A DNA stretch of 64,000 bases from Candidatus Lloydbacteria bacterium RIFCSPHIGHO2_02_FULL_50_18 (GTDB lineage Bacteria; Patescibacteriota; Minisyncoccia; Phycocordibacterales; UBA6899): positions 64,001-128,000 of the forward strand of contig MHLM01000004.1 of the NCBI GenBank assembly GCA_001821395.1, written 5' to 3'. A program made the translations under genes and the position numbers. Shown in pieces: positions 3,445 through 64,000 of the stretch (positions are counted from its first letter, which is position 1; each line of letters opens with the position of its first letter). The notes under the pieces are model-generated. The model was not told where the DNA came from. It was given only the letters and a program-made list of their open reading frames with translations, and did not search any database.

Positions 3445-3695
3445 CGAGAATATTTCCTGCATGGCTTCGCTCTTTATCCAAAATCTTAAAGAATGATACA
3501 TAGAACTTCAACCAACACTGACACTAGAGGACGCGTTGCGCCTCGTGATGTGACCAATTTTTCTCAGCGGTACTCCGCTTTAGAAAAATGAAATGCCCTC
3601 TGTGGTACATCAAAAATATTTCGGCCGGCATATTGACATAATCAGTTATTTTCATAGGATGAGTATTGGAAGAGTTTGAAAAGGAGAATTGACCA

Positions 3696-3895: not shown

Positions 3896-4307
3896 ACTCG
3901 TTAAAGGAACTGTTCTCGGACCGAACCAGAAGGGGAGGATAATCCTCGACAGGGTAAACCGACAGAGGGAAACGAAAAGATCTCAAGCGGCATGCTCGCG
4001 TGGATGCACGCGTAATGCCAAGGGCTTAGCCGTAACGGGGCGCGCCAGCACCTGACATCCCGTAGGGGACGAGGGTTTGAGAGATCAGCCATAAAACGGG
4101 TGCCTTATCATCCGTGGCAAATCGCCGGAGAATAGTTCTGCCATTTCAAACGTCGCATACTCGTGCGGCGTTTTTTCTTTTCCGAGGACCACCCAAACAT
4201 GGTGAATTTCTTTATTTCGGGATTCTCGTGATTCGGTCGCCATGCATGAGTGAATGGCCTCACCTGTCCACTTCGCTTTTCTGGTCAATTCATGCGAAAA
4301 TACCCTC

Positions 4308-5240
4308 ATGGGAATGTTCACTAGTACGCGCCGCATCGTGAGAGCGGGATTCATTAATTTCTGGAGGAATGCTGTTGTCTCCTTATCGGCCATCTTTGTC
4401 ATGAGCATCGCGCTCTTTGTGGTTGGTTCCACGATCCTTTTTTCAAACTTTCTTGATTCAACCCTAGAGGAGATCAAGAACAAGGTTGATGTGAACGTAT
4501 ATTTTAATCCTGACGCGCAGGAATCCGATATCTTTTTGATGAAGCGCTCTCTCGAAGAGCTTCCGGAGGTCAAGTCGATAGAATATATTTCTCGCGATCA
4601 GGCAATCGCGAATTTCAAAGCACGTCACAGTAATGACTACCTTATGACTCAGGCACTCGATGAGCTGATCGATAATCCACTCGGGGCAATTTTGAACATC
4701 AAGGCGAAAGACACGTCTCAATATGAAGCGATCGCCAAGCGCATCAAGAGCGATCAGGAGACGGCCGGTCCCGGAGGGAATCTGATCTATAGTGTTAATT
4801 TCAGCAAGAACAAAGTGGTCATCGACAAATTGACCGATATCACGAATGGGGTTGAAAAAGTATCTTTTGCCATACTGCTCGTACTGATCGCAATCGCGAT
4901 CGTGATCACCTTCAATACAATCCGCTTGGCGATCTATGTTTCCCGCGAAGAGATCGCTATCATGCGTCTCGTCGGGGCCAATAATTCGTTCGTGCGAGGA
5001 CCGTTCATCGTCGAGGGCATCATGTACGGCATGGTTGCGGCGATCGTTGCGACCGCACTGCTTTATCCGGTGACACATTGGCTTCGTGATGCGACACAGA
5101 ATTTCTATGGCGGAGTCGACTTCTTCTTCTCCTATTACATCAATCATCTCAATCAGATCTTCGCCATTTTGCTGGTTGGCGGAGTGTTCCTAGGCGCAGT
5201 TTCATCGTTCCTTGCGGTGCGGAGATACTTAAAAGTTTAA
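4308..5240 (+). CDS. ftsX: Cell division protein FtsX (permease-like)
   Basis: TM1, an extracellular loop of about 130 aa, then three C-terminal TMs with an MRLVGA...PFIVEG motif. The start is ambiguous (4254, 4308 or 4314). Confidence 0.8.
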   Translation: MGMFTSTRRIVRAGFINFWRNAVVSLSAIFVMSIALFVVGSTILFSNFLDSTLEEIKNKVDVNVYFNPDAQESDIFLMKRSLEELPEVKSIEYISRDQAIANFKARHSNDYLMTQALDELIDNPLGAILNIKAKDTSQYEAIAKRIKSDQETAGPGGNLIYSVNFSKNKVVIDKLTDITNGVEKVSFAILLVLIAIAIVITFNTIRLAIYVSREEIAIMRLVGANNSFVRGPFIVEGIMYGMVAAIVATALLYPVTHWLRDATQNFYGGVDFFFSYYINHLNQIFAILLVGGVFLGAVSSFLAVRRYLKV

Positions 5241-12941: not shown

Positions 12942-13012
12942 TGCGGGTTCGTCTAATGGTAGGACATCGCCCTCTGGAGGCGAGTATTGGGGTTCGAGTC
13001 CCTGACCCGCAG
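12942..13012 (+). tRNA. tRNA-Gln (anticodon CTG)
   Basis: U1:A72 acceptor stem TGCGGGT/ACCCGCA, D-arm GTCT..GGAC, anticodon stem TCGCC/GGCGA with loop CTCTGGA, T-loop TTCGAGT, and discriminator G. CCA is not encoded. Confidence 0.8.
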
Positions 13013-13018
13013 CAAATG

Positions 13019-13046
13019 AAAACACCCCTTTTAATGGGGGTGTTTT
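13019..13046 (+). terminator. Hairpin terminator after tRNA-Gln
   Basis: AAAACACCCC-ttttaa-TGGGGGTGTTTT. Confidence 0.6.
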
Positions 13047-13060
13047 CATTTGCGAGGAGA

Positions 13061-13082
13061 GGAAGCCATCTGCATGGCTTCC
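13061..13082. repeat. 22-bp perfect palindrome GGAAGCCATCTGCATGGCTTCC, copy 1, embedded in an inverted copy of the tRNA-Gln 3' half
   Basis: Identical 22-mer at 61685..61706. Flanked by TTTGCG and GGCAGGGACTCGAA, which match the reverse complement of the tRNA-Gln T-arm and acceptor 3' strand. Confidence 0.8.
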
Positions 13083-13165
13083 GGCAGGGACTCGAAGCCG
13101 TTCTCCCATATTTTCGAGACATTCTTATGTTGAGAAAATAGGAAACGGGTACTGACGCAGTAGGC

Positions 13166-13189
13166 GTCGAGATTCCCTGACCCGCAGCA
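13166..13189 (+). repeat. Direct repeat of the tRNA-Gln 3' end (16 nt exact: TCCCTGACCCGCAGCA), att-like
   Basis: Identical to 12999..13014. Located 160 bp downstream of the tRNA. Confidence 0.8.
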
Positions 13190-13236
13190 GCCGCACAAAA
13201 CCACTCTGTATGGAGTGGTTTTGTTTTGCGGTTGCT

Positions 13237-13255
13237 CGCGGGTCAGGGACTCGAA
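13237..13255 (-). repeat. Inverted copy of the tRNA-Gln 3' end (CGCGGGTCAGGGACTCGAA), forming a roughly 35-bp imperfect hairpin with 13174..13209
   Basis: Reverse complement of TTCGAGTCCCTGACCCGCG. Confidence 0.75.
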
Positions 13256-13303
13256 AGACGGAGGCGGTCTACGCCGCCACTTTCCTAAGTGCGGTGTCGC
13301 CGA

Positions 13304-13373
13304 GCGACATTGTTTTCTTATGAGTAAGCGAGTTAGAAAACAAGAAGTACTCTTGTGGTGCCGGGGTCGAGAG
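13304..13373 (-). repeat. Repeat family R1, copy 3 (reverse orientation), flanked by a 9-bp inverted repeat CCTAAGTGC/GCACTTAGG
   Basis: The reverse complement aligns with 2378..2445: TTTTCTTA..TTAGAAAA..AAGTACTCT..GTGGTGCCG. Confidence 0.65.
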
Positions 13374-13547
13374 CACTTAGGCTTTTGGCTGCCTTGCGCC
13401 AAAATATTTAGTGACTCGTGATCAAGTTTGACCCGTAGACATGTCGTGCTCTTATGATGCGCGTTCTTTTTTAAAAAATATTTTGAGAACAAAAAGAAGC
13501 CTATTTTGTGGTTAAAAAAACCGCAAGCCTTTACTTGCGGTGATATT

Positions 13548-13824: not shown

Positions 13825-14040
13825 ATAGACAAAACCCTCCTCGTGAACAAACCGCCATAAATAGTACACCAGTAGCTTTGAGAGTCAAGAATGATCAGAA
13901 AATGTAGCAAGTGCACCTAGTGCTCTTCGTATCAGATATATCGACACCAAGTCATCCGACCAAGGTGGGCTTGACTGACCACGGTTTTATCTAGGGTCGG
14001 CCAGCTTTTAAAAACAGAAAAGCGGTATAATTCAGAGTAT

Positions 14041-14394
14041 ATGAATATTTCTAAGAAAAAATTTGTTGCCCTCTTCCTCATTTCTGCGTTTGCCTTTCAA
14101 TTCATCTCCAACTCACTTTTTGGGTCAGACGTTCGACTCTTTCCTCAGAAAGGGGAGTCTTTGTTGGGGACGGATCCACAAATAGGCTGGAAGAGTGCCG
14201 GATACAAAATTCAATTGCCTATCAAAATTGTTTTGATGGGACCCATGCTGCTTTCTACTGATTTTTTGCGAGATGATCCACCACCTCCATTTGTTGCCGC
14301 TGTATTTGCTCTCTACTGGTCGATCCTTGCCTTATTTATTTACTATCTTATCGGTATTATAAGTAGAAGACATCCTCTATGTGTTTCTGCTTGA
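14041..14394 (+). CDS. Hypothetical membrane or secreted protein
   Basis: N-terminal hydrophobic segment plus a C-terminal TM. AT-rich. No homology recognised. Confidence 0.3.
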
Positions 14395-14548
14395 GTGCTT
14401 GGGTAATTTTGTGAGCAAGGAGGAGAGATGGGTTATATCTGTTTTGTTCAAGCGAAATAATTGTTTGTCTGGTTACTCCTGCAAGTTCAGCAAGTTTTTC
14501 TTGCGTAAGGTTTAATTTATTTCGATAAAGAGCAATGTTTGTTTCCAT
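14357..14548 (-). CDS. XRE-family helix-turn-helix transcriptional regulator (63 aa)
   Basis: [35 protein letters not shown] is a classic Cro/C1 HTH. Confidence 0.8.
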
Positions 14549-14550
14549 TT

Positions 14551-14979
14551 TTAATTTTTCTTATCTAAATAGAAATTTGAAGCGGCTTTAACGATAGTAC
14601 CAACGATGAGAGCTAATAAGATCACCGGATCAACTCTCGTGATCTCGTTTACAACAATGCCTGCGGCAATCTGATAACCGATGCCTGCGGTGAGCACTAC
14701 TAAGATAGCCCAAAGGGCATTTCGCTCAGAGATCGCTTCGTGTATTATATCCCGCTCGTCTTTCGGCACATGAACCATCATAGCTATGAAATCGATACCA
14801 AAAACGATCGCCCACAATGAGAGCAATACTACTTGCGTTGACCCAATGACATTCATTTCAGTTATGACAATTATCGGCAGTATCATAACGACAATATATG
14901 CCCAGCCTTGCCAAGTAGAAGGTGTCAGCCCCCAGCCCGTATACTTTCTTCTTTTGAACCACTCCGGTTTTGCGATCAT
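14551..14979 (-). CDS. DUF2178-like membrane protein, partner of the XRE regulator
   Basis: Four TMs. Abuts the small HTH gene, a common HTH plus DUF2178 pairing. The start is taken at the internal Met MIAKPEWF. Confidence 0.45.
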
Positions 14980-15278
14980 ATAATTATGTTTATTACTAAT
15001 GTAATATATACTATACGTAAAATATATATTACACAAGCGCTATTGCGGATAACTTGCATTACGGGTAAAAGTTTCACTGCGGATATTGAATGCTAAGTCA
15101 GGAGATCGTTTTGGGCGGTCTTCCGGGGTGCCTCTTCGTGAGACCCTGAAAGGTAGTTTGTAGGGCAATGCGTCGTCTTCACTCCATCTTTTTCGCCTCT
15201 AATATTTATGCTTCTTCTAACTTAAATAGGTTCCAGTTTGTTCCTGACGCGCAGTATTTTTTTTGGTATGCTCATTTT

Positions 15279-15605
15279 ATGAAGATAGTAAATCCAAGAG
15301 TCGTCCCTGATGTAGCTCAAAAATATATCATCGCCAAGATTTTCAATAGCGATGAACTTCTGCTTTGGGGCGATCCAGAAATCGAATGGCATAAGGACAT
15401 TGCAGAAGAAATGGGTGACGCAGGCCTCGTTGTTGAATGGGTAAGGGGAGGAGGAAGATTGAAATTCGTGACTGATTCGAAAACTATTTATGTCTGGGGT
15501 AAAAGTAGTATGTATGGAGCCGCGTCATTTCGGGAAGCGAAGAACATTTTGAGGATCGCTTATTCTGACTATGACATTCTTAATGAGATCCCTCCAGAAG
15601 AATAG
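15279..15605 (+). CDS. Hypothetical protein
   Basis: ORF only. The start is ambiguous (15168 or 15279). Confidence 0.3.
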   Translation: MKIVNPRVVPDVAQKYIIAKIFNSDELLLWGDPEIEWHKDIAEEMGDAGLVVEWVRGGGRLKFVTDSKTIYVWGKSSMYGAASFREAKNILRIAYSDYDILNEIPPEE

Positions 15606-15684
15606 TTCCAACGTCGTCCCCTGCATCTAATTTGATAAATGCGCTAATCTTGCTGATTGGCATTTTTTAAAGCCAATGTCTGTT

Positions 15685-15990
15685 TTATGAAAAATCTCGT
15701 TTCCCTTCCCAGGGGATACCCCCGTAGTCCAATAATAGTTCTTCACCAGATCGAATATCTCTTGAGGAGATAAAATAAAATTTATCTCCATTTTGTAACA
15801 GCCCTATGTTGGGATCTTGTGAATGATTTATTTTCTCTCCGAGGCTCGTTCTCGCATAATCCACATCAGGATTTCCCGTGGTGCTAATTCTTTTGAATCC
15901 TAACCCGATATTCTCACCGCAGACGATATTATCTCTAGTGAAAACTCCATGCCCCGCAATATTTGATCCCTTTATTTCGAGGTTGACCAT
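15685..15990 (-). CDS. SET-domain protein (putative protein lysine methyltransferase), 101 aa
   Basis: NHSQDPN (an NHSCxPN-like motif) and ELLLDYG (an ELxxDY motif). Confidence 0.65.
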   Translation of the reverse strand: MVNLEIKGSNIAGHGVFTRDNIVCGENIGLGFKRISTTGNPDVDYARTSLGEKINHSQDPNIGLLQNGDKFYFISSRDIRSGEELLLDYGGIPWEGKRDFS

Positions 15991-16020
15991 TGCTTTGATT
16001 ATAGCTTTTTGTTAATTTCC

Positions 16021-16506
16021 TCATCGTCTCCATCCCGCATCATCGAATCGTGCGCCATCTCCGTTGAGGTATTTTTGCATCATTTCCTTTGCTGGCCCTC
16101 GGCGCACCCATGCATCATTGACTCCCGTCATGTCGACAAGAATACCTGCAGTGATGATTGCAACAATGAATCCCGCGATGATGATCTTGAAATCTATCTT
16201 GTAGGAAAAATCATAGCGTCGGAGCAACCATATTCCGAGAACGAGTCCGAGTATCGCAAATACGGGCGCCCACCACGGGAAACTCGAAAGAAATTGCTCA
16301 AGGCGATATTCTCCCATTGGTCCGTGCGACCGAGAAAGAAAACGCAGTAATCCAAAAAGGAAAACTGAGACAACTATTGAAGAGACCAACCCCAAGAAGG
16401 TGAGTAGTGATCCGAGAATAAAGTATATCTTTGGGCGGGGTTTTATCTGCTCACCATGGATCTTTCCCATGATGGTGTCGGTGATGTTGTTTAATTCTTT
16501 TGACAT
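16021..16506 (-). CDS. Putative anti-sigma factor or membrane protein cotranscribed with the ECF sigma
   Basis: Overlaps the sigma gene by 16 nt. Has a cytoplasmic N-terminus followed by 3-4 TMs. Confidence 0.4.
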   Translation of the reverse strand: MSKELNNITDTIMGKIHGEQIKPRPKIYFILGSLLTFLGLVSSIVVSVFLFGLLRFLSRSHGPMGEYRLEQFLSSFPWWAPVFAILGLVLGIWLLRRYDFSYKIDFKIIIAGFIVAIITAGILVDMTGVNDAWVRRGPAKEMMQKYLNGDGARFDDAGWRR

Positions 16507-17033
16507 AAGTGTTTCATTAAGGCTTTTGCGCGACTTACGCGCGTCGCAACGGTACCCATTGGTATGCGCAGGATGTCGCTGATCTCTGCATACGACTTCT
16601 CTTCTATATAATACAACGTGAGCGGTTCAGCGTAGAGGAGGGGTATCTGTTCGAGGCACTTCGTCACCATCTCCACTGTTTCTTTTTGCTCGAATTCCTT
16701 TTCGATGTCTTCATCACTTACAAAATCCGCAGTATCCAAGAGAGGGACTTCACTCGGATATTTTTTGATGATGTTGAGTGCCACATTATGTGCAATACGA
16801 TATATCCAGCTCGAAAATTTCTTTTTTACGTCAAAACCGTTGAGATTGATGTACGCGTTAATGAAGGCTTCCTGGACGACGTCGGTCGCCATGTGTTCAT
16901 CCTTGATGAGGTGAGTGACGTAGCGGAGTAGTTTGTGTTGATATCGCTCAATGAGTATAGCGTAAAGATCCCGATCAGTTGATCGAACTTTTTCAACTAT
17001 TGCTTCATCTGAAAGTTTTTCGTTCTCGTCCAT
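16491..17033 (-). CDS. RNA polymerase sigma-70 factor, ECF subfamily
   Basis: Region 2 (DVVQEAFINAY) and a region 4 HTH (SYAEISDILRIPMGTVATRVSRA). Confidence 0.85.
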   Translation of the reverse strand: MDENEKLSDEAIVEKVRSTDRDLYAILIERYQHKLLRYVTHLIKDEHMATDVVQEAFINAYINLNGFDVKKKFSSWIYRIAHNVALNIIKKYPSEVPLLDTADFVSDEDIEKEFEQKETVEMVTKCLEQIPLLYAEPLTLYYIEEKSYAEISDILRIPMGTVATRVSRAKALMKHLCQKN

Positions 17034-17120
17034 ATAAAAATTCTACTCAGTATTATTGATCATGTACACTAAATCCCCGATCGTGACTCGGGGTAGTGTG
17101 CTTGGGGGTTGTGCTTTTGC

Positions 17121-17492
17121 TTAACGATTCATGTGCCTGCCCATCCCTTTTCCTCGTCCTTCTCCACCTCCAACACCGAGGCCAAGTTCTTGGCGGATCT
17201 TTTGTGCTTCAGCGATCTTTCCTTGCTCTGCCAATTCATGAGCCTCAGCAAATTTTGCAAAGTTCCCCTGATTGATGACTTCCGTTGCTCGTCCTCGTCC
17301 TTGCATCAGCTCTTTCCATGCATTGTAATCCTTCTGCTCAAATACCTTCTCCATTGCCTCATGGCGCTCTGTGCTGTAGTTTGGACCTTTAACGCTAGGG
17401 TCTCCTCTATATGCAAGCGCAGCGCTCGCGGATACCCCGAGTCCTCCAAGGACAAGTGCTGCAACTCCTAAGCCGAATAGTTTTTTGTTCAT
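17121..17492 (-). CDS. Small secreted protein with a Gly-rich C-terminus
   Basis: Signal peptide MNKKLFGLGVAALVLGGLGVSASA. Confidence 0.45.
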   Translation of the reverse strand: MNKKLFGLGVAALVLGGLGVSASAALAYRGDPSVKGPNYSTERHEAMEKVFEQKDYNAWKELMQGRGRATEVINQGNFAKFAEAHELAEQGKIAEAQKIRQELGLGVGGGEGRGKGMGRHMNR

Positions 17493-17741
17493 ATGTGTTT
17501 CTCTTTAGATCAATGATTAATTTCAACCCCCTCCACTATTAATACAAGCTCAGGGAGTATTTTCTTTCATCGGTGAAAATTGCCCGAATTTCAACGTTTA
17601 TTCTCGGTCTTTACGATGGTCTTTTCCGTTGCGAGGGAGGAATGACCCGTGTGAGCTACGATCAGCGGATCGAATGACGCCTGTTGACAGTCGTTGTCTT
17701 CTTTTGACACACTTACTGAGTGAGAAGCAGGTAAAGAAATC

Positions 17742-18815
17742 ATGCATAAAGGGTACAAGCCGATAAAATTCCCGGAAGATGAATCAATCCACGATTATAT
17801 CGTTGAGTGGTGGTATTTTAACGGCCACCTGAAAGATGCAGATGGCAATGAATATCCTTTTATGGACTGTCTGTTCAAGGTGGATATGAAGAAGGTGAAA
17901 AGACCTTTTTTGAGTCGGCTGCGGATCAAAACAGCCTACTTCTCTCATTTCTCTCTTTCGGACCTAACGAATAAAAGTTTTAATCAGCGGATAGCTCCTC
18001 TTTCGCTTGTTTCCGACGATAGCTTTTCTAAACCGCTCCTCTACATTAGTTATATCAATCCCACCGTCAAAAATAGTTACACGAACTGTGTCATTGAAAA
18101 AATAGGTGAGTCAGTTTATCATCTAAAAAATGAGGACATTGATCTCCAGTTAACGTCAGTGAAGGAGCCGCTGCTCGAAGGGGGAAACGGATTTCTCGAT
18201 TTCCATTCTCGGACAACCTATTATTACTCCTTAACGAATCTCAGAACGGTAGGAAAAATAAAGGTCAATGACAAATGGATAACTGTTACCGGCAAGTCCT
18301 GGATGGATCACCAATGGGCGGATGCGAGTTATTCCGTGAATAGGTGGGATTGGTTCTCGGTGCAATTCGATGATGATACGGAAATGGTCTGCTGTGTATA
18401 TGACGATGGCAAGGTCAAGACTTTTTTTGCCGACATTTCGTATCCGGATGGTACAGAGGGGCATTACACTGAGATCGAGATCATTCCTTTGGATAAGCAT
18501 TGGACAAGTCCAAAAAGCAAGGCGGTCTATCCAGTCTCATGGAGCATTACGATACCGGAAAAAAACATAGAGGTGAATCTGACTGCAGTGATCGAAGGTC
18601 AGGAAATGCTTTTTGGGTCAATTAATTATTGGGAGGGTCCGCTTAAGGTGGAGGGTTCATTCGGGGATAAGAGGGTAATCGGTGTCGGCTTCATGGAATT
18701 GGTCGGCTATCCATCAGAGTACAGTAATGTGAGATATCTCAAGGATGAGATCGGTAAGGTCGCAAGTTGGTTTATGTTAGCAATAAGGAAAAGGGCCCCC
18801 ACCCGTGGCTCGTAG
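17742..18815 (+). CDS. AttH/CrtC-like lipocalin-fold protein (COG5621-type predicted secreted hydrolase/hydratase)
   Basis: FPEDESIHDYIVEWWYFNGHL signature of the CrtC/AttH family. Confidence 0.6.
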   Translation: MHKGYKPIKFPEDESIHDYIVEWWYFNGHLKDADGNEYPFMDCLFKVDMKKVKRPFLSRLRIKTAYFSHFSLSDLTNKSFNQRIAPLSLVSDDSFSKPLLYISYINPTVKNSYTNCVIEKIGESVYHLKNEDIDLQLTSVKEPLLEGGNGFLDFHSRTTYYYSLTNLRTVGKIKVNDKWITVTGKSWMDHQWADASYSVNRWDWFSVQFDDDTEMVCCVYDDGKVKTFFADISYPDGTEGHYTEIEIIPLDKHWTSPKSKAVYPVSWSITIPEKNIEVNLTAVIEGQEMLFGSINYWEGPLKVEGSFGDKRVIGVGFMELVGYPSEYSNVRYLKDEIGKVASWFMLAIRKRAPTRGS

Positions 18816-18829
18816 TATAATGGTAGGTA

Positions 18830-20032
18830 ATGAAAAAAGGACCGTTGAATGTTCATCCTGACGTCATAAAATTGGGTATCGTCAGCTTTTTGACCGACCT
18901 CAGTTCCGAGGCGATCTTTTCGGTCTTCTCCCTATTTTTTACCGTCGTGGCGGGTGCTTCAACCTCTCTCCTCGGTTTGATCGAGGGTCTTGCTGACCTG
19001 TCTGCATCTTCGCTCAACTATTTTTCCGGTTGGTTGTCAGATCGCTACGGGAAGAGAAAGCCCCTTGCCGTAGCGGGGTATGGGTTTTCAACGGTGGCAA
19101 AGACGATACTTCTTTTTGGCACATCCGTCCTCGCTCTCGGTTCTTTCAGGGTAATTGAACGTTTGGGAAAAAGCTTTCGAGGTCCGCCCAAAGATGCATG
19201 GCTCGCAGAAATGACGGATGAGTCAACGAAAGGGTATGTTTTTGGTCTGCACAAGGCGATGGACAAAGCGGGCGCCGTGCTCGGTCCGCTTGTCGCATAT
19301 TTTTTACTTCGCGTGCTCGGAGAGAGCACGGGTACGTTCCATGTGATCTTTTTTTTGGCCGTGATAACGGCTGCACTATCGGTCGTTGTGCTTTTGTTCA
19401 TAAAAGATCGTCCGGGTATTTCTCATGAACGCGAAAATATGTTTAAGGCGTGGGGAACATTAAGTCCGCAATTTCGATCGTATCTTATTCCTGCGGGAAT
19501 TTTTTCTTTAGCATATTTCAGTTTCGGGTTTCTTCTGTTGCGGGCTTATTCCATAGGTTTTTCAATGGGTGACGTGGTACTGCTTTACGCACTTTTCAAC
19601 GTTTCGTTCGTCATAATTTCCATCCCGATAGGAAAACTCGGTGACATATTCGGGCGAAAGTACATTGTTGCTTTAGGATATGTTACATATATCATCATGT
19701 CTTTAGGCTTTGTCTTTGCCACTGAAAAATGGGAGGTGGTCATCTTGTTCCTGTTGTTTGGTATTTTTTACAGTATTGATGACGCCCAAAGCAAGGCATT
19801 TATTATGGATATAGAAAAAGACAGACGGGCCACTGCCATCGGCGTGTATAACTTCGTCACCGGCTTGATCTATCTTCCCGCTTCTGTTATTGCAGGCGTT
19901 CTTTGGGTCATGAATCCCGCATATGCATTCATTTTTGCAGCTATCGTCACGAGTATCGCCATGGGCGTTTTTATCGTGTTGCGTCCCTGGAATCAAAATT
20001 TATCACAACAAGATATCACCGAGAACTACTGA
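18830..20032 (+). CDS. MFS transporter
   Basis: 12 TMs, with a GWLSDRYGKRKP loop motif between TM2 and TM3. Confidence 0.8.
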   Translation: MKKGPLNVHPDVIKLGIVSFLTDLSSEAIFSVFSLFFTVVAGASTSLLGLIEGLADLSASSLNYFSGWLSDRYGKRKPLAVAGYGFSTVAKTILLFGTSVLALGSFRVIERLGKSFRGPPKDAWLAEMTDESTKGYVFGLHKAMDKAGAVLGPLVAYFLLRVLGESTGTFHVIFFLAVITAALSVVVLLFIKDRPGISHERENMFKAWGTLSPQFRSYLIPAGIFSLAYFSFGFLLLRAYSIGFSMGDVVLLYALFNVSFVIISIPIGKLGDIFGRKYIVALGYVTYIIMSLGFVFATEKWEVVILFLLFGIFYSIDDAQSKAFIMDIEKDRRATAIGVYNFVTGLIYLPASVIAGVLWVMNPAYAFIFAAIVTSIAMGVFIVLRPWNQNLSQQDITENY

Positions 20033-25605: not shown

Positions 25606-26496
25606 TCACCGCACGGCATCAGTGAATACGACCAACCTCTCTGAATAGCTTAATTGTCCCGGATTCCAGGTGCCTTCACAGGTAATGATATTTAGATGTG
25701 CACCGCCATCTGCCGATACAAAAACAGTAGTAGCATCGGAATTTGGATCATAGAGACGACTCTCACGAACTGCGTATGTGAACGACTCTCCTCTGTCGTT
25801 AGTCACCGATAATCTGTCTCCCGCACGCAGCTCCCTTAGGTTCATGAAGACGCCCGGCTTCGTCAGCACTCCTCCGCGTATCTGGGCAACATGACCGGTC
25901 ATGACGGCGGTACCTATTTCTCCCGGTTGCGCACTTCCGGTGAACCATCCCACGTCGACAATGTTGTTTGGTATTTCCATTGCCCCGGCTTGTGTGAGAC
26001 CGTTGTGTTGAACATTTGCATCGACATTGAGCTTGGGGATATTGAGACGAATCGGTAATCCGCTATTGGTGTCGACCATCGGGATGGTTGTCGTTCCTGC
26101 AGTCGGTGCTGTTGTCGTCCCGACGATGATGTCCGGTATACGAATCACACTGATCGGAACTGCAGTGGTAGTGATATATAATTTTGCTCTCGAAATTGGG
26201 CCAAAAAAACCGACTGAAGGAGCAATGTCCATTGACGCCTGCCATTTCCCGAGCGCGGTCCTTGTGAGTGCTCCAAAGTAGCCAGTTGGGGTAGCAATGT
26301 TGAGAAATCCACCCGCAATCAAAAATTGTTGCAGTGCTGACACGTCACTCCCTCGAGCTCCCACCGTAAGGTTGCGCGTGAAGGTAAGTTCAGCAGCTGA
26401 GAAGGCAGAAGGTGCACTTTCCGCACTTGCATTACTTCCCAGCATTGAAGCAGCAAGCAGTAACGCGATAAGGTGTATTTTAGTTGATTGTCTCAT
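25606..26496 (-). CDS. Sortase-family transpeptidase with an N-terminal peptidoglycan-binding (PG_binding_1) domain
   Basis: LNIITCEG (TLxTC-like) plus the conserved His region. N-terminal RGSDVSALQQFL...GYFGALTRTAL. The start is ambiguous (26496 or 26568). Confidence 0.6.
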   Translation of the reverse strand: MRQSTKIHLIALLLAASMLGSNASAESAPSAFSAAELTFTRNLTVGARGSDVSALQQFLIAGGFLNIATPTGYFGALTRTALGKWQASMDIAPSVGFFGPISRAKLYITTTAVPISVIRIPDIIVGTTTAPTAGTTTIPMVDTNSGLPIRLNIPKLNVDANVQHNGLTQAGAMEIPNNIVDVGWFTGSAQPGEIGTAVMTGHVAQIRGGVLTKPGVFMNLRELRAGDRLSVTNDRGESFTYAVRESRLYDPNSDATTVFVSADGGAHLNIITCEGTWNPGQLSYSERLVVFTDAVR

Positions 26497-26512
26497 TGGG
26501 GTAGTATGCCAT

Positions 26513-26881
26513 TTATTCGCATGGAGCGAAATTGCAATCTGGAGGCAGGCGCAATGAGAATGAGCCATCCGGGCAACTTCTCGCGTCTGCGGTACACGTG
26601 ACGACGAGTCCTTCCGCCGTCGATGCCTTGGGCACGTCGGACACTCCGTTTGTTATCGCAAACGTAATCTGCTCATTGGGGCATCGATCAAATGTACAAT
26701 CGGGACCGGTGCGACCCACCGCGGATCCGTCAGGGCATATCTTTGCTTCAGCAGTGCAGGAACCAGCAGTTACACCAGTGCTGGGATACCATGGTAGTAT
26801 GAACGCGAAGATGAGGATGATGAGCGATACAATGATACCGACCTTACCGAGCACGATGACCTTCTTTTTCTCTAACTTCAT
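26513..26881 (-). CDS. Small membrane-anchored protein with two CxxxxxxCPDGS...PDCxFxxC repeats
   Basis: Internal duplication CTAEAKICPDGSAVGRTGPDCTFDRCP and CTADARSCPDGSFSLRLPPDCNFAPCE. Lies directly upstream of the sortase gene on the same strand. Confidence 0.45.
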   Translation of the reverse strand: MKLEKKKVIVLGKVGIIVSLIILIFAFILPWYPSTGVTAGSCTAEAKICPDGSAVGRTGPDCTFDRCPNEQITFAITNGVSDVPKASTAEGLVVTCTADARSCPDGSFSLRLPPDCNFAPCE

Positions 26882-45937: not shown

Positions 45938-48900
45938 ATGAATTATTTTTATTCCCTGATCTTTGCTGTTCTATTCGTCATCACACCCCTTGTTTCCTCC
46001 GCGTACGACGGAGCATTTCTTGTCCCGAGTTGGACAAATCCGCTTCCAACGGCAGTGTACGCATTTAGTACTAGCGTTATCGTCACGGGGAGTTGGCAAT
46101 TGCCGGCGGATTGGATCGGAAAAATTTATGTGTATCAGGATGCATTATTGGGTCCGGATGATTCACTGCTTACGCAGGGGACGCAAATGACCGACGTGGG
46201 CGGAAATAACGGTTATACAATAGATAATACGGGAGGGGCCACAACGAAGACCGGCACTTTCAGTTTTGATGTCGGAGCACAGCTGCCCGGTCTGCACAAC
46301 ATCCATCTCGAATTTTGGGGGGGTGAAGTCTGTGCTATCAATAAGGCGCTGAACGATTTGAACGGTACAAATTTCATTCCGTCATGTCCGATCACTGCGG
46401 ACAATGCGGCTTTTAATATTGTTTGGCCAGCTCGAAAATATACGGTTGGTAACCCCTTATTTCCAAGTATGACGGTTACTCCGAGTAGTGATCCCGCACT
46501 CAATTTTCTTAATGTCGAATTTGGTTCACCGCAGACCCTCACCTTTACTATTGGAAACACGGGGGGACAAACGCTCTCTGGGTCTATCTCAGGGATCACA
46601 AGTCCTTTTTCCTGTTCTCCATCGTGTAATTATGCCGTGAACCCTAATACGTCGCAGAATATCACTATTCAATACGTGCCACCTCCGGCACCGGATTCAT
46701 CCGATCAAACATTCGTCTTTAGTTGTGTCGGAGCATCCTTGGGGTGCGCGAAGGTTTCTGCCTCACTGCCCGTCGTCATTGTCGCTCAACCATCTGAATC
46801 GAGACACGTTATCGCAAATTCCGTCACGAATAGCGTTTCGCCAAACATTATTGTGACCCCTGCTTTGGTGAATTACGGTAGCCTCAACCTCGGCGTCCCG
46901 GTTGCTGACCGGCCATTTGTCGTGAAGAATACGGGCGGAGGATATCTCAATGGTGTGGTGTCCTTTAGCACACCTGAATATTCTTGCACCGGTCCATGTA
47001 GTTATAGCGTTTCGGCTGGCGGGCAAACGACCATTTGGGTTCATTATATTCCGTCCGTTGCCGGTACGTTCAATGATACTGCCACTTTTGGCGGTGGTCT
47101 GGGGCAGGTAGTAGCACTGAGTTCGGTGGTCAATGATAAACCGATTATTTTGGTCGGAACTACTCTTATAGATTTTTATGCAATTAACGGCAATAAACCG
47201 GTCAATGTCGGTTCTTGCAAGTCATATTCCTCGTGGGTGAAAAATATTGGCGCGAGTACACTCTCAGGGTCCGTCACGAATGTACCGCTCGCGACGCCAC
47301 CGATGAGTGATCCAACTGTTAATCCTCTTTTTACGTGCACGGCGGGGTGTACCTATAATAATTTGACGAACGGTCAATGGCAATGGTTCACGATCCAGTA
47401 TTGCCCTACCATTAATGGAACGGAAGCGGGGACAGCGATACTCACAAATGCATTGAACGCACCAAATACTGCAACAATTAATCTCACAGGCAGAGGGAAC
47501 ACACAGCCAATAGGAACACTTAGTTCGTCGCTCATTTTTGGAAATGTGCTCATCAATACCACTAAACAAATCACGTTTACTATCATGAATACCGGCGTTG
47601 GTGTGTTGAGCGGGTCCGTTGGTGCTTTGCCGGTTCAATTTGCTTGTGATTTGGGTTGCACCTACAATATTCCCGCCGGGGGAAGCGCATCCGTAACGCT
47701 TTCATTTAATCCGCTCCTCGTTCAATCCTATGGGGGGACCGTTAATTTTTCGGGGATTGGAGATTTTTCAGTGAGTGGGTCCGGAGTACAACCCATCTTT
47801 CAGGCGAGCTGGGATAATTGGCCTTATTACCATTCAAATAAGTGCCCCGGAGCAACATGTCTCGATCCGGAGATCAAGGATTATGACATTGGGGCAACTA
47901 CATTCACCGGGAATCTGAATTTAGCTGTTCAGTATAAAAACTTTTATCTTTATGCAATGAATAAGGGTACCGGGGCAAATATTACCTATTCATTTCCGAA
48001 TACGGCGCATTTTAAATGTATCGCCGTATATTACACCGGTACGGTTGGTGCCGGTGGTTGCAGTGGTACGCTGTTACCGTTCTTGTCAGCAAGTTATCAG
48101 TACCTATTCCGCCCAACCTATCAGTTCCAACCGGATGCGGCAGGGGACTTCAGCGAACCGCTTACGATTACCTATGATTACGGATTTGGACCGCAGACAA
48201 AGACCGTGAACCTCGTCGGACATTCCATCAGCGCCCCATTCCTTGATGTTTCTCCGACTGGGATACGCACGATCGTTCCGAATACGCCCGTGGGAACAAA
48301 CCCCTCACCGAAGGCAGTCTACACCGTGACAAATCTCGGAGTCGGTCCAATGGATTATAGTGTAACGGGGATCCCCGTTGGAAGTCCTTTTTCCTGCATC
48401 ACGAATTGTAGTATGGTCGGTCTAATGCCGAACACCCCTGTTACTGTTGAGTTTGAGTTCACTCCGACAGATGCCCTGACGACCATTATCTCACCGTGGT
48501 TCAACTCCACCGGCGGAAATCTGCAAAGAACCATCAAGGGAACGGGAAGCGTCAGTCCGGTTACTGGCTTGGTTCCACCTTCAATTTTTTATCCTGATAC
48601 AAACATGGGGCAGTTCACCAATCGCACGGTCAGAGTCACAAACTCCGGACTCGGAACACTCTCCGGCGTTGTTACTCCCGTTGCCCCATCAGGTCTCGAT
48701 TTTTTCTGTATCACGAATTGCGGCTATTCACTCACTGCGGGTCAAAGCACCGATAGTGTGAGCGATCCCGTTATCCAGTTTCGTCCGATGCAAACGGGTC
48801 CGTTGAATGCAACGATAGATTTTTCCGGAGGATCAAACGGTGTTCAGTCGGTCTCGGTATTTGGCACTGCTATCTTTGCGCCCATCATTGACATTCGCGG

Positions 48901-49222
48901 AGCAGACACAAATTTTGGCACGGTCGTGATCACCAAGTATAAAGATCGCGTTTTCACGGTAAAAAATTCAGGAACCTCAGATCTCGGAAGTGGAACATTC
49001 TCTGTCACGGGTCCTTTTTCCTGCGTCGACCCCGTCGACCCAATCGATGGTCTTTGTCACTATTCCCTAAATGGAGGCACGGAGGTGACTATCACCATTC
49101 GGTTTAGCCCTATGACGGTCGGTCCGGCGAGTGGCGCCGTATCCCTTTCGGGAGTACCGATCGCTCGATTTTTCGTGAATGGTCAAGGTGGTCAACCTGT
49201 GTTCATTTTCAGAGAGATCTGA
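45938..49222 (+). CDS. Giant secreted protein (1094 aa) of about 8 tandem Ig-like repeats (choice-of-anchor-D/ASH-like)
   Basis: Signal peptide. A recurring unit of about 100 aa: V.N.G...L.G.V....F.C...C.Y.L..G.S..V...F.P...G. Confidence 0.7.
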   Translation: MNYFYSLIFAVLFVITPLVSSAYDGAFLVPSWTNPLPTAVYAFSTSVIVTGSWQLPADWIGKIYVYQDALLGPDDSLLTQGTQMTDVGGNNGYTIDNTGGATTKTGTFSFDVGAQLPGLHNIHLEFWGGEVCAINKALNDLNGTNFIPSCPITADNAAFNIVWPARKYTVGNPLFPSMTVTPSSDPALNFLNVEFGSPQTLTFTIGNTGGQTLSGSISGITSPFSCSPSCNYAVNPNTSQNITIQYVPPPAPDSSDQTFVFSCVGASLGCAKVSASLPVVIVAQPSESRHVIANSVTNSVSPNIIVTPALVNYGSLNLGVPVADRPFVVKNTGGGYLNGVVSFSTPEYSCTGPCSYSVSAGGQTTIWVHYIPSVAGTFNDTATFGGGLGQVVALSSVVNDKPIILVGTTLIDFYAINGNKPVNVGSCKSYSSWVKNIGASTLSGSVTNVPLATPPMSDPTVNPLFTCTAGCTYNNLTNGQWQWFTIQYCPTINGTEAGTAILTNALNAPNTATINLTGRGNTQPIGTLSSSLIFGNVLINTTKQITFTIMNTGVGVLSGSVGALPVQFACDLGCTYNIPAGGSASVTLSFNPLLVQSYGGTVNFSGIGDFSVSGSGVQPIFQASWDNWPYYHSNKCPGATCLDPEIKDYDIGATTFTGNLNLAVQYKNFYLYAMNKGTGANITYSFPNTAHFKCIAVYYTGTVGAGGCSGTLLPFLSASYQYLFRPTYQFQPDAAGDFSEPLTITYDYGFGPQTKTVNLVGHSISAPFLDVSPTGIRTIVPNTPVGTNPSPKAVYTVTNLGVGPMDYSVTGIPVGSPFSCITNCSMVGLMPNTPVTVEFEFTPTDALTTIISPWFNSTGGNLQRTIKGTGSVSPVTGLVPPSIFYPDTNMGQFTNRTVRVTNSGLGTLSGVVTPVAPSGLDFFCITNCGYSLTAGQSTDSVSDPVIQFRPMQTGPLNATIDFSGGSNGVQSVSVFGTAIFAPIIDIRGADTNFGTVVITKYKDRVFTVKNSGTSDLGSGTFSVTGPFSCVDPVDPIDGLCHYSLNGGTEVTITIRFSPMTVGPASGAVSLSGVPIARFFVNGQGGQPVFIFREI

Positions 49223-61383: not shown

Positions 61384-61551
61384 GTACTCTATTCAACAAG
61401 AAATCGTGCACATAGACAAGGCCATGACCGCCCGTTCGCATAAAGTGCACGCATCAGGGAACCCCTTTGCTTTTTGTGGGGTTTTTGTTATATTCTTCAG
61501 GTACGCTTCTCGGTGAAACGTACAAGGTATTCTTAGTTAGAATATTTTTAT

Positions 61552-61626
61552 TCCGGTGTAGCTCAGTGGTAGAGCAGTGCGCTGTTAACGCATTGGTCGC
61601 AGGTTCGAATCCTGCCGCCGGAGCCA
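61552..61626 (+). tRNA. tRNA-Asn (anticodon GTT), CCA encoded
   Basis: U1:A72 acceptor stem TCCGGTG/CGCCGGA, anticodon loop CTGTTAA, T-loop TTCGAAT and a 3' CCA. Confidence 0.85.
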
Positions 61627-61639
61627 ACAAATTTCGTGG

Positions 61640-61668
61640 AAAAGACCCGTATGGGGTCTTTTTCTTTT
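61640..61668 (+). terminator. Hairpin terminator after tRNA-Asn
   Basis: GACCC-gtat-GGGGTC followed by TTTTTCTTTT. Confidence 0.65.
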
Positions 61669-61669
61669 G

Positions 61670-61719
61670 TTGGCTCCGGGCGGAGGAAGCCATCTGCATG
61701 GCTTCCGAAAGGATTCGAA
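61670..61719. repeat. Inverted copy of the tRNA-Asn 3' half interrupted by palindrome GGAAGCCATCTGCATGGCTTCC (61685..61706)
   Basis: TTGGCTCCGGGCGG and AGGATTCGAA match the reverse complement of the tRNA 3' strand. The insert is flanked by AGGA on both sides. Confidence 0.8.
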
Positions 61720-61780
61720 AAGCTTGGTGTTGTTTTGTCTTCAAAACCACCAAGGTGTACCGTCCATGTAATGGAAGAAA

Positions 61781-61843
61781 CTCCTGCACCACAAGAGTAC
61801 TTCATTTTTCTAAGACGGAGTACCATTAAGAAAAATTGGTCGC
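61781..61843 (+). repeat. Repeat family R1, copy 2
   Basis: About 85% identical to 2378..2445. Confidence 0.7.
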
Positions 61844-61854
61844 CGCCGGAGCCA
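61842..61854 (+). repeat. Direct repeat of the tRNA-Asn 3' end (GCCGCCGGAGCCA, 13 nt exact), att-like, abutting R1
   Basis: Identical to 61614..61626. Confidence 0.75.
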
Positions 61855-61958
61855 GAGAATGACCACTATAAATAGTGGTCATTGTTGTGTGTGGAGGATT
61901 CAAACTTTCAGAATATTTGATATAATTTGATAGTTACTATTCTCAATTTTTTAATGAC

Positions 61959-63557
61959 ATGAAAAAATACATATCCATAGCTTTCATTATTGTTGTGGTT
62001 ATTGGTGTTTTTTTATTTTTTCTTGGTAGTTCTACCAACAATAATCTCATTGGAGATAGCGTTAGGATGACCCGCTTACTCGTCAATGGGGTACCTTCGA
62101 GCGGTGGTTTTGTGAATGTGACTTATTTGGAAAGTGAGGAAAAATATCCTGTGATAAATATTGCGGTGGACTTAAACAAAGACGGTGTTATCAAGTCTTA
62201 CGAGGTTGATGGGGGTATTCAGGAAGAATGGCTTGTCACGAATATGTATGCCCAAGTGGTTGGTGGGTCAAAAAATAATTACTCTATTTCTATAAAAGAC
62301 ACAAAACTTGATAGTAAAACTGACCTGCCGGTGTATGTAGTCTTAAGTGAAAATGAGATAAAAGACTGGTCTGGTGAAAAAGTTTCCGGAGGTATATATA
62401 AAGAAATTTTATTATCCAAAATAGATACAATGGATTATGGATCACTGTATGCTCCGGATCCGGAAGGTGAGCGGGCCGGTGGGTCACCATTGGGTTCTGT
62501 TCTGTCCAATAAGGTTTTTGCATATGATGCCGTTAATGAATACAGGACAGATGTTCCTGACATTGATCAGGGGTACAACGAGTGTGTCCCCACGTCCATC
62601 GCCAATTCACTTTTATGGTTAGCTGATAAATATAAGTTTCTCGATAAATTGCCAAAGGGGGGTGATAAAGATTTAATCGCTGAGCTTAAGAGTGACTTAA
62701 AATGGACAAAGTATGGTGTTTTGCATAAAGACATTGTTCCCGGAATAAAAACTTTTATTAAGAGACATAAACTCTTGTTGGAAGCGCATCAAATAGGAGA
62801 AATTAGAGACGACGAAATCATGGCTAAAATAGCGGGGGAGCTTAAAAGGGGACAGGATGTTGAGGGTTGGCTGGAATATCGAGGATATTTTAAAAATGAT
62901 TCCTATCTGCGTAAGGGTGCTCACGTGGTTACGGTGGTTGGTGTTTGGACAAGTCCTCAAGGCACAAAATTTATCGGGTTAAATGATCCTCTGTCTCAAG
63001 GGGGTCATGCGACAGATATTTATGAACTCAGTGGAGTGCAGGTTCTCGATTATGCTTTTCAGGGTGATTATGAGACATATCTCATTTCCGCTTTTGCTGA
63101 GTCACCCATTTCTGAAGAGGAGGTTATGCCGTCTGTTACCATAGATAATTCAAGTATTAAATTAATAAAAGAAACTCATCCTTCCGGTGGAACCACGCGC
63201 ACTTGTTTGGTCACATTGTCAGGAACAGCTACCGGACCGGAGTGCAGTTATGTAACGCTTCAGGGTGGCAAACCTGGCACTGGGTCTACGATGGATATGA
63301 ATGGGGCGGAAAGTTGCCCAGATTGGTCATATTGGGGTACGAGTGGATTTTGTGTTCGTCATCTTAAGCAAAATAATACTACAGCATGGAGTGTTACTTT
63401 TGAGGCTTCTACGTATTGGGGTAAAACTGATTTAGATTTTAGTATAATGTTGGGGGCACCAAAACTGCCTCTCGAAGATCTTTATGGAGGAAATGTTTGT
63501 GCCTCAACTGAAACAGATCAAAAAATATACGATACAATATCTTTGGAGTGTAAGTAA
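61959..63557 (+). CDS. Secreted protein with a predicted papain-like (C39-like) cysteine peptidase domain, in an AT-rich island-like context
   Basis: Signal anchor. YNECVPTSIANSLLWL Cys motif and a GAHVVTVVGV His motif. Visibly lower G+C than the neighbouring genes. Confidence 0.45.
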   Translation: MKKYISIAFIIVVVIGVFLFFLGSSTNNNLIGDSVRMTRLLVNGVPSSGGFVNVTYLESEEKYPVINIAVDLNKDGVIKSYEVDGGIQEEWLVTNMYAQVVGGSKNNYSISIKDTKLDSKTDLPVYVVLSENEIKDWSGEKVSGGIYKEILLSKIDTMDYGSLYAPDPEGERAGGSPLGSVLSNKVFAYDAVNEYRTDVPDIDQGYNECVPTSIANSLLWLADKYKFLDKLPKGGDKDLIAELKSDLKWTKYGVLHKDIVPGIKTFIKRHKLLLEAHQIGEIRDDEIMAKIAGELKRGQDVEGWLEYRGYFKNDSYLRKGAHVVTVVGVWTSPQGTKFIGLNDPLSQGGHATDIYELSGVQVLDYAFQGDYETYLISAFAESPISEEEVMPSVTIDNSSIKLIKETHPSGGTTRTCLVTLSGTATGPECSYVTLQGGKPGTGSTMDMNGAESCPDWSYWGTSGFCVRHLKQNNTTAWSVTFEASTYWGKTDLDFSIMLGAPKLPLEDLYGGNVCASTETDQKIYDTISLECK

Positions 63558-63799
63558 TGTATAGCGGATAGAATTCCTTGAAGAACCGGACCTATTTGAA
63601 TAAAAGCAAAAGAAAAACACCGCGTTGAGGATGTTTTTCTTTTGTTGATGCTTCGTGCAGCGAGCGGAGCTCGCTGGCTGGAACCGAACACCGGAGTATA
63701 AATTTTCAGCAGAAAATATTACGAGGCGGTGCGCAGACCAAAATGTTGCGACGGCAATATTTTGCGTCGCAGGAGAAATTCCTGCCGCCGGAGTCTTTC

Positions 63800-63994
63800 T
63801 TACGGACTGCACCGTAACTTATCACGGTAGATAATGGAGACGAGAGCAAAGCTCAAAATAAGCAGAAGGAACCACGAACCGATCTTATGAAGTGAGACAA
63901 GGTGCCAGTACTCCAACTGATTTGGGTAGAGCCAAATGTGGGTAAGAGTACCGATATTTTCCGCTATCCAAACAAATAGCGCTGTCAAAAACAC
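63800..63994 (-). CDS. Hypothetical membrane protein, possibly truncated by the window end
   Basis: Hydrophobic ORF at the window edge. Confidence 0.2.
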   Translation of the reverse strand: MFLTALFVWIAENIGTLTHIWLYPNQLEYWHLVSLHKIGSWFLLLILSFALVSIIYRDKLRCSP

Positions 63995-64000
63995 TGTTAA

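Follow-up and report, generated by a model that had tools for sequence, protein, structure and literature searches.

What is the AT-rich gene that follows tRNA-Asn in Candidatus Lloydbacteria bacterium RIFCSPHIGHO2_02_FULL_50_18, and how did it come to lie there? The gene starts at position 61959 of the stretch analysed here (the window: 64,000 nucleotides of contig MHLM01000004.1, positions 64,001 to 128,000) and its product was deposited as a hypothetical protein (OGZ06130.1, locus tag A2845_01805, UniRef A0A1G2CZN7). Genomes of Patescibacteria, the bacteria of the candidate phyla radiation (CPR), are tiny, and a host-attached life is presumed for these organisms; their gain of accessory genes and their secretome are poorly known. 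The reading that we favour, with a probability of about 0.6, is that the gene encodes an exported cysteine peptidase of clan CA and lies on a cassette of about 2.2 kb that carries this one gene, resembles a cis-mobilizable element (CIME) and recombined into the 3′ end of tRNA-Asn. Within it, we infer export, peptidase activity, substrate, the mechanism of recombination and the donor.

The composition of the gene sets it apart from its surroundings. It and its only candidate promoter are placed as follows:

61959..63557, + strand: peptidase coding sequence (CDS; 532 aa), ATG start, the open reading frame (ORF) with the motifs YNECVPTSIANSL and GAHVVTVVGV
61899..61926, + strand: promoter-like site (TTCAAA, 16 nt, TG-n-TATAAT), the sole sigma-70-like site within 61400-64000

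The frame and both motifs are as an initial annotation of the window had given them, and its description of the gene as AT-rich is borne out by compositional analysis. Against the 41 non-overlapping window ORFs of at least 200 aa, this one is the strongest outlier, with a G+C content (GC) of 0.403 (mean 0.509, sd 0.030; z -3.56), a third-position GC (GC3) of 0.340 (0.566, sd 0.061; z -3.70) and the largest codon-usage distance of the set (0.623). GC, GC3 and codon usage all deviate, as they do in tRNA-linked islands. The closest homolog (P0001, on contig L015) shares 87% of its amino acids and 89.6% of its nucleotides, the similarity beginning at the ATG and ending 6 nt after the stop; its contig has a GC of 0.387, and the gene copy, with a GC3 of 0.306, fits those surroundings. 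Homologs at greater distance agree in GC with the contigs that carry them, and a 66% homolog in L001 is GC-poorer than its neighbours. Between the window gene and P0001, dN/dS is 0.23 at a dS of 0.29, and the gene is therefore under purifying selection and functional. On this evidence it would not be ancestral and would have arrived from a lineage of lower GC.

The DNA around the gene carries several copies of the tRNA-Asn 3′ end, here called att1 to att3, together with a series of hairpins:

61552..61626, + strand: tRNA-Asn (GTT) with encoded CCA (ARAGORN; Rfam tRNA 73.7 bits)
61596-61626, + strand: att1, the proximal att-like copy, which is the 3′ part of tRNA-Asn
61638..61664, + strand: terminator-like hairpin after tRNA-Asn
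61666..61687, - strand: inverted copy of the tRNA-Asn 3′ end (22 nt, 86% complementary)
61685..61706, + strand: hairpin GGAAGCCATCTGCATGGCTTCC, part of a tRNA-downstream module
61754..61858, + strand: dispersed intergenic repeat, one copy, which also forms the left arm of a 99-nt direct repeat pair
61842..61854, + strand: att2, a 13-nt exact copy of the tRNA-Asn 3′ end, GCCGCCGGAGCCA (tRNA copy at 61614-61626)
61858..61883, + strand: hairpin AATGACCACTATAAATAGTGGTCATT between att2 and the cassette; a hairpin has the same position in L017 and L019
61896..61921, + strand: conserved 5′ block of the cassette, GGATTCAAACTTTCAGAATATTTGAT, whose first 11 nt are an inverted tRNA T-loop-like motif
63607..63644, no strand assigned: hairpin between the convergent peptidase and DUF817 genes, scored terminator-like on the minus strand
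63766..63796, + strand: att3, a distal degenerate direct copy of the tRNA-Asn T-arm and acceptor end, GTCGCAGGAGAAATTCCTGCCGCCGGAGTCT
63800..64000, - strand: 3′ end of a DUF817 membrane-protein gene (full gene 63800-64585, past the window end)

The tRNA was the sole match in an Rfam scan of the locus. The initial annotation had noted an att-like repeat of tRNA-Asn, and this is real: it is the 13-nt exact copy, for which the chance expectation is about 0.002 in 64 kb on both strands. Three further copies had been missed, among them att3, so that the distal repeat previously expected past the window end is found inside it. att3 is identical to the tRNA at 23 of 28 positions (63766-63793, 82%; 14 nt exact) and lies 2,170 bp from the tRNA copy. 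The last 17 nt of the tRNA match 63780-63796 with 2 mismatches and the inverted copy (61671-61687) with 3, the latter being able to base-pair with att2 or the end of the tRNA; with as many as 3 mismatches allowed, this 17-mer has three matches where 0.12 are expected, a number reached in 0 of 100 shuffles. A fourth, decayed copy is situated beyond the window. The spacer 61627-61958 has a fold z-score of -6.4, and a T-rich run also trails the 63607-63644 hairpin on the + strand. The gene adjoins tRNA-Asn and lies between direct copies of the tRNA 3′ end, which is the layout of a tRNA-linked island.

How far the deviant segment extends can be followed in contig L003, which overlaps the window identically and supplies 7 kb beyond it (its coordinates equal window coordinates minus 51958), giving 71 kb in all. 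The unit that deviates at the codon level is a single gene, about 2.2 kb. The adjoining DUF817 gene is probably native, though it lies inside the outer repeat pair spaced 3,022 bp apart: its GC is 0.407 and its GC3 of 0.473 (z about -1.5) is within the window range, the low GC being due to codon positions 1 and 2, as expected of a membrane protein. Two-boundary segmentation on raw GC delimits 61711-65230 (0.414 versus 0.518), so the right-hand edge cannot be set by raw GC alone; the outer boundary may be either att3 or the 3,022-bp repeat. Farther out, past the window end, two paralogous ORFs of 103 and 102 aa (L003 13055-13366 and 15699-16007; 55% identical) flank a glutamate dehydrogenase gene, and the 103-aa ORF has no Pfam match.

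Evidence of movement comes from homologous loci. Members of one cluster of at least 90% identity occupy four different contexts. In L016 the homolog is followed by BipA; in L017 the order is rpoD, a 114-aa ORF, tRNA-Asn and, 270 nt downstream of the tRNA, the homolog, with a degenerate T-arm-like copy at +119; in L019 a PRiA4_ORF3-family gene and a 156-aa ORF precede it, and the right flank is the same DNA as in L016; in L020 it stands between a tRNA 3′ half and RtcB. Upstream context differs from the window even where the tRNA is shared, since an abhydrolase gene precedes tRNA-Asn in the window and rpoD with the 114-aa ORF in L017. Relative to the gene, DNA similarity runs from -64 to +138 between L016 and L017, from -14 to +126 between L017 and L020, and, at 99%, from -16 to +1040 between L016 and L019, whose left flanks differ. 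An exact direct repeat of 23 nt, AGGTTCGAATCCTACCTGCGGAG, stands on either side of the L020 homolog; it corresponds to the tRNA T-arm and acceptor and has a spacing of 2,104 nt, as compared with 2,170 in the window. A 5′ block, GGATTCRAACTTTCRGARTATTT, opens with the inverted T-loop-like 11-mer and starts the similarity in the window (at 61896), L016, L017 and L019; the DNA before it is unrelated among these four, and homology breakpoints fall at T-loop-like motifs.

The same tRNA end is also found, as an exact 22-nt sequence and without the tRNA, 80-155 nt from tyrosine-integrase genes on two unrelated viral contigs of IMG/VR:

L022 2726-4038: tRNA-Asn 22-mer with integrase, high-GC, attP-type-looking site
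L023 2943-4127: tRNA-Asn 22-mer with integrase, high-GC, attP-type-looking site

Elsewhere, then, the tRNA-Asn 3′ end functions as an att site. For the cassette itself, an origin from phage or prophage was considered and is unsupported, as relatives of the protein, the repeat core, the hairpin module and the 5′ block were searched for on viral contigs and none was found. The 113- and 114-aa ORFs upstream of the L001 and L017 homologs were likewise discarded as a conserved partner, being unrelated to each other and to the 103-aa ORF of the window. The exact protein is encoded on 12 contigs, and the arrangement does not differ among them. Scanning genome collections with the flanking abhydrolase gene yielded one syntenic relative (L006), whose contig stops about 100 nt after the tRNA; its tRNA shares with the window an exact 24-mer at the 5′ end and an exact 25-mer at the 3′ end, with an invariant block through ...GGAGC. 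In a sister strain (L018 1-349; Logan SRR22388057), a degenerate duplicate of the tRNA-Asn 5′ end and an insert of about 170 nt precede the true tRNA-Asn, and the tRNA-Asn locus is rearrangement-prone. A separate 168-aa Peptidase_C39_2/C39 protein is encoded at L020 4115-4621, after RtcB and 2 kb downstream of the homolog.

Taken as a cassette, the segment would comprise its own promoter, one gene and a 3′ tail, and recombination into the tRNA-Asn 3′ end would have kept the tRNA whole at one edge and placed a partial copy of its 3′ end at the other. Since it has no recombinase of its own, movement would need an integrase supplied in trans or recombination between repeats; and since no mobility gene was detected in the 71 kb, it is better described as a CIME-like remnant or cassette than as a classical island. 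The earlier idea of island cargo thus survives in part, as a gene horizontally acquired at a tRNA-Asn integration hot spot, and gives way in another, there being no large island.

The stretch after tRNA-Asn is itself one of three homologous tRNA-downstream modules, and it includes one copy of a dispersed repeat. In an nhmmer search of the 71 kb this repeat had five core copies of about 60-85 nt (core GCACCACAAGAGTACTTCATTTTTCTAAGnCGGAGTACCnnTAAGAAAAATTGGTCGC):

2386-2446, + strand: repeat core
3537-3619, - strand: repeat core
13304-13364, - strand: repeat core
61777-61858, + strand: repeat core
64798-64880, + strand: repeat core (L003 12840-12922)

The arms of the 99-nt pair, 61754-61852 and 64776-64874 (beyond the window), are 86% identical, rising to 96% over a core of about 72 nt; they are spaced 3,022 bp apart, with the peptidase gene, att3 and DUF817 between them. 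With five core copies in 71 kb, the repeat was ruled out as a unique att site. It has no Rfam entry, and stem changes between copies of its hairpin are apparently compensatory. Two inverted copies bracket ftsE (2639-3325) within 2386-3619, and the spacer between ftsE and ftsX (4254-5240) is unusual at about 930 nt. The second module follows tRNA-Gln (12942-13400) and contains a terminator, an exact second copy of hairpin GGAAGCCATCTGCATGGCTTCC (13061-13082; 0 expected) and the inverted T-loop-like motif; here the copies of the tRNA-Gln 3′ end, direct at 13172-13188 and inverted at 13235-13251, have no gene in between. The third lies after DUF817 (L003 12660-12920, window-equivalent 64618-64878) and starts with a decayed tRNA-Asn-like 3′ end, AGGTTCTACGGCGCGGAGTCA; the tRNA end with its module is therefore duplicated 3,022 bp apart around peptidase and DUF817. 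Just past the tRNA-Gln module, window 14000-20000 is a low-GC stretch (0.40-0.47) of small membrane proteins, with ORFs for an ECF-type sigma-like protein (16491-17033, -), a 101-aa SET-like protein (15685-15990, -) and an MFS-like transporter (18830-20032). The stretch is a possible second acquired region, for which a distal repeat of tRNA-Gln was not found.

What the cassette carries is best approached through the domain layout of the protein:

Residues 1-26, + strand: anchor or signal, the sole hydrophobic segment lying at about residues 4-23 (19-20 residues)
62040-62438, + strand: Ig/Fn3-like domain, residues about 28-160
Residues 161-195, + strand: linker, disordered in the AlphaFold model (at 159-191), of varying length among homologs
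62544-63113, + strand: catalytic core, residues about 196-385 (the core shared by the family is at about residues 200-400)
62568..62585, + strand: codons Q204 (oxyanion-hole candidate) to C209 (nucleophile), motif QGYNEC
62922..62987, + strand: codons H322 (motif GAHVVTVVG) to D343 (motif NDP)
Residues 386-532, + strand: six-Cys domain (beta-domain)

The AlphaFold model, built from 12 sequences, gives the catalytic domain (about 200-385) a pLDDT of 80-90. Its matches in a Foldseek search of the PDB include staphopains C and A (E 3.5e-5 and 4.4e-5, probability 1.00, TM 0.65-0.66), and the best structural neighbours are mostly true proteinases or leader peptidases (staphopain, IdeS, interpain, SpeB and C39). 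In an alignment of 83 diverse relatives, the candidate nucleophile C209 is conserved in all 83, H322 in 82, D343 in 80 and Q204 in 68, and the residues follow the papain-like order Gln, Cys, His, Asp. PF13529 (Peptidase_C39_2) is matched across its whole 143-position profile by 28 of these relatives (best E 1.5e-9). Because the modelled fold, the conserved residues and the PF13529 matches in relatives agree, we regard the papain-like (clan CA) assignment of the core as secure. This sustains the initial annotation's Cys...His enzyme of papain/C39 type, and the HMM search that it had proposed returned the peptidase clan through the relatives, no model matching the window protein. The product would be a cysteine endopeptidase in which C209 acts as nucleophile and H322 as base, D343 orients the histidine and Q204 is likely the oxyanion-hole residue.

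The family is numerous and nameless. A word-indexed search of 5.8 billion proteins returned 11 relatives of the window protein, 0 of them named, and 0 named relatives again with the 83-member profile; an exhaustive profile search returned 646 cluster representatives at E <= 1e-3, of which 133 reach E <= 1e-30. PF13529 matches neither the window protein at E <= 10 nor, in precomputed results, the 11 closest homologs. As far as sequence comparison goes, the family is a neighbouring branch beside PF13529, without a model of its own and without secure membership in that family. The window protein also has no match to PF05543 (staphopain).

The other domains suggest a place outside the cytoplasm. 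An N-terminal hydrophobic segment is present in 66 of 77 complete relatives, and some relatives bear PEP-CTERM, T9SS sorting domains (Por_Secre_tail, CHU_C) or Fn3/Ig modules, for which reasons the family appears to be extracytoplasmic. For the window protein, the earlier label of a secreted protein agrees with the hydrophobic segment in so far as this would direct export; the segment could equally be an uncleaved membrane anchor, so that the enzyme would be either tethered through its N-terminal helix or freed by signal cleavage. The Ig/Fn3-like beta-sandwich N-terminal to the core has a conserved D-x-N-x-D-G loop and would probably serve for binding or as a spacer, possibly in a Ca2+-dependent manner. 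The protein has seven cysteines, C209 and residues 416, 429, 453, 465, 514 and 531; the six non-catalytic ones are confined to the C-terminal 147 residues, in agreement with the Cys-rich end described earlier, are conserved in the 6 closest homologs and probably form disulfides. Its predicted role would be to cleave extracellular protein or peptide, most plausibly host or competitor surface material, or nutrients. The same genome encodes surface-display machinery, a sortase with a peptidoglycan-binding domain (25606-26568, -), and a large surface protein of 1094 aa with HYDIN/ASH-type Ig-like domains (45938-49222, +); the peptidase has no LPXTG-type end.

Several results weigh against the combined reading of an exported peptidase on a CIME-like cassette. 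On the protein side, no model in Pfam or NCBIfam at E <= 10, PHROGs or PADLOC matches the window protein, and sequence searches of the PDB, also with the 83-member profile, gave no match, the best being chymopapain at E 0.57 around the His region. When relatives were scanned singly against PF13529, 4 of 10 matched with 17.6-23.3 bits, under the gathering score of 24 bits. The second-best structural neighbour, PDB 22oc ('P210 CD lyase'), is deposited as a lyase, and literature searches on its function turned up BCR-ABL papers or nothing. On the side of the element, no integrase or mobility gene was detected in the 71 kb or the related loci by a check that was not exhaustive (tblastn and phmmer with 2 integrase probes; Pfam on 18 larger ORFs). 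att2 is located at the edge of the dispersed repeat with its five copies, and copies of tRNA ends are not specific to the peptidase locus, tRNA-Gln having one of its own end 160 nt away without cargo; the modules weaken the specificity of att2 as evidence. The 87% homolog in L015 and those in L001, L007 and L021 have no tRNA-like flanks, and an empty site was not found, the candidate contigs L006 and L018 ending at or inside the tRNA. Raw GC is low through DUF817 to about 65.2 kb and the 3,022-bp repeat pair closes at about 64.88 kb, which agrees with the initial annotation's suggestion of an island continuing past the window end, whereas the codon-level outlier is one gene.

A bolder form of the favoured reading can be put forward tentatively, and we think it doubtful. 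The peptidase gene would belong to a previously undescribed class of miniature, recombinase-less, single-gene cassettes with T-loop-mimicking ends (an inverted T-loop-like motif at the 5′ end, a direct copy of T-arm and acceptor at the 3′ end) that home to tRNA 3′ ends, tRNA-Asn in two lineages, and carry a secreted peptidase of host interaction back and forth between CPR and further uncultivated bacteria. In that case the modules without cargo and the dispersed hairpin repeat would represent related elements that are empty or have decayed.

The alternative that survives best, though we hold it unlikely, is acquisition without site-specific integration. Homologous recombination or gene conversion with DNA of a related organism could have used tRNA-Asn and the repeated modules as anchors, the copies of tRNA ends being by-products. 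Such a process would account for the failure to detect an integrase, for the duplication, 3,022 bp apart around peptidase, att3 and DUF817, of an approximately 250-nt module (made up of a terminator, hairpins, the dispersed repeat and a decayed tRNA-Asn 3′ end), and for the rearranged tRNA-Asn 5′ fragment of L018. Breakpoints between near-identical homologs hug the CDS (upstream at -14 to -20, downstream at +3 to +6 or +126) and suggest mosaic recombination. Against it stand the exact 23-nt tRNA-end repeat around the L020 homolog, a classic att x att product, four contexts without common flanking homology that could have served as anchor, and the use of the same 22-mer as an integrase-adjacent att site on the two viral contigs.

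A second alternative concerns the enzyme, and we judge it improbable. CPR episymbionts plausibly need to breach host walls, and the core might be directed not at protein but at peptidoglycan, as an endopeptidase of stem peptide or cross-bridge or as an amidase, or it might perform other Cys-His-Asp chemistry (acyl transfer, transglutaminase-like or lyase). PF13529 domains are, in the excerpts of the literature available, commonly reported in phage endolysins. Most of the best structural neighbours, however, are true proteinases or leader peptidases, and a Gln 5 residues before the Cys is typical of cluster I peptide hydrolases (PMC10318531). The Pfam search revealed no LysM, SH3 or PG_binding cell-wall-binding module in the protein, PHROGs gave no match, and relatives on viral contigs were looked for and not found.

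The odds are long that the gene is native and immobile, its low GC having another cause and the copies of tRNA ends being ordinary features of tRNA loci in this genome. tRNA-Gln, with the same module, its own 3′-end copy and no cargo, would fit, as would the dispersed nature of the repeat beside att2, the uniform arrangement in 12 of 12 exact-protein contigs and the distant L017 homolog, whose position after tRNA-Asn could be old synteny. Such a gene would not be expected to lie 3.7 sd below the others in GC3 with the largest codon-usage distance of the window, to share 89.6% of its nucleotides (dS 0.29) with a gene in an AT-rich contig amid unrelated flanks, or to have near-identical homologs in four contexts, and the upstream context differs between the window and L017. 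Hardly credible is a protease of C39 type that matures bacteriocin-like or quorum peptides by removal of their double-glycine leaders, because PF03412 (bacteriocin-processing C39) does not match the window protein, there is no ABC-transporter fusion, no transporter, leader-peptide or other small-peptide gene occurs in the cassette or among its neighbours, and the protein, with its Ig-like and Cys-rich domains, is predicted to be outward-facing.

The favoured reading, an exported peptidase on a CIME-like cassette, would have consequences on two levels. It brings to light a sizeable family (about 650 clusters), so far unannotated, of predicted exported papain-like enzymes with a conserved triad, which are candidate proteases of the cell surface or of host interaction. 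It also offers a traceable transfer, in which a gene entered a CPR genome at a tRNA gene with no resident integrase detected, and of which the L020 copy keeps a perfect att repeat. If the cassette is real, recombinases acting in trans together with mimicry of tRNA ends would form a route of gene flow in CPR organisms; if it is not, the locus would still yield a hypothetical protein of an ordinary kind, gained by horizontal transfer, to which a clan CA peptidase annotation can now be given.

Among known enzymes, the protein is closest in outline to Peptidase_C39_2 (PF13529; for example the putative C39-like peptidase of B. anthracis, PDB 3erv), with which it shares the papain-like core, the order Gln...Cys...His...Asp and a stand-alone form without transporter fusion, and whose whole profile is matched by 28 of 83 relatives. 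It differs in that neither it nor its closest homologs match PF13529, and in having an obligatory Ig/Fn3-like N-domain with the DxNxDG loop and a six-Cys C-domain particular to the subfamily. With the staphopains (MEROPS C47; PDB 8oig, 1cv8 and the pro-form 1x9y) it has in common the type of a secreted bacterial papain-like proteinase and a long N-terminal region before the catalytic domain. Unlike them, it shows 11% identity in the structural alignment and no PF05543 match, its N-domain is a generic Ig/Fn3 sandwich without a match to protease prodomains, it has an additional Cys-rich C-domain, and in this single-gene cassette no staphostatin-like inhibitor gene follows.

As for the element, a CIME keeps attL and attR and has no integration and transfer genes (PMC5704250). 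The cassette shares with this class its flanking direct copies of the tRNA 3′ end, the absence of any detectable integrase or transfer gene and a setting in an apparent tandem array of att copies, consistent with accretion; attL- and attR-like copies are kept and mobility genes were not detected, and L020 repeats the pattern with its exact 23-nt repeat. It differs in its size of about 2.2 kb with one cargo gene, in the inverted T-loop-like motif that its 5′ end bears across contexts, and in its host, a CPR bacterium; the likeness lies in att copies and gene content, and derivation from an integrative conjugative or mobilizable element (ICE/IME) would be hypothetical. No helper was identified for the cassette, and we know of no conjugative helper in CPR bacteria. 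tRNA-Asn is a known target of islands and prophages with tyrosine integrases. The cassette resembles these in its target, the tRNA-Asn 3′ end from T-arm to acceptor, in having a whole tRNA at one end and a partial copy at the opposite end, in its deviant composition and in the identical 22-mer that stands beside integrase genes in L022 and L023, two high-GC contigs unrelated to it; it differs in the lack of a detected integrase and in being at least ten times smaller than typical islands. In sum, the protein represents a new branch, with no family model, within a familiar superfamily, and the element represents a known class in a small variant.

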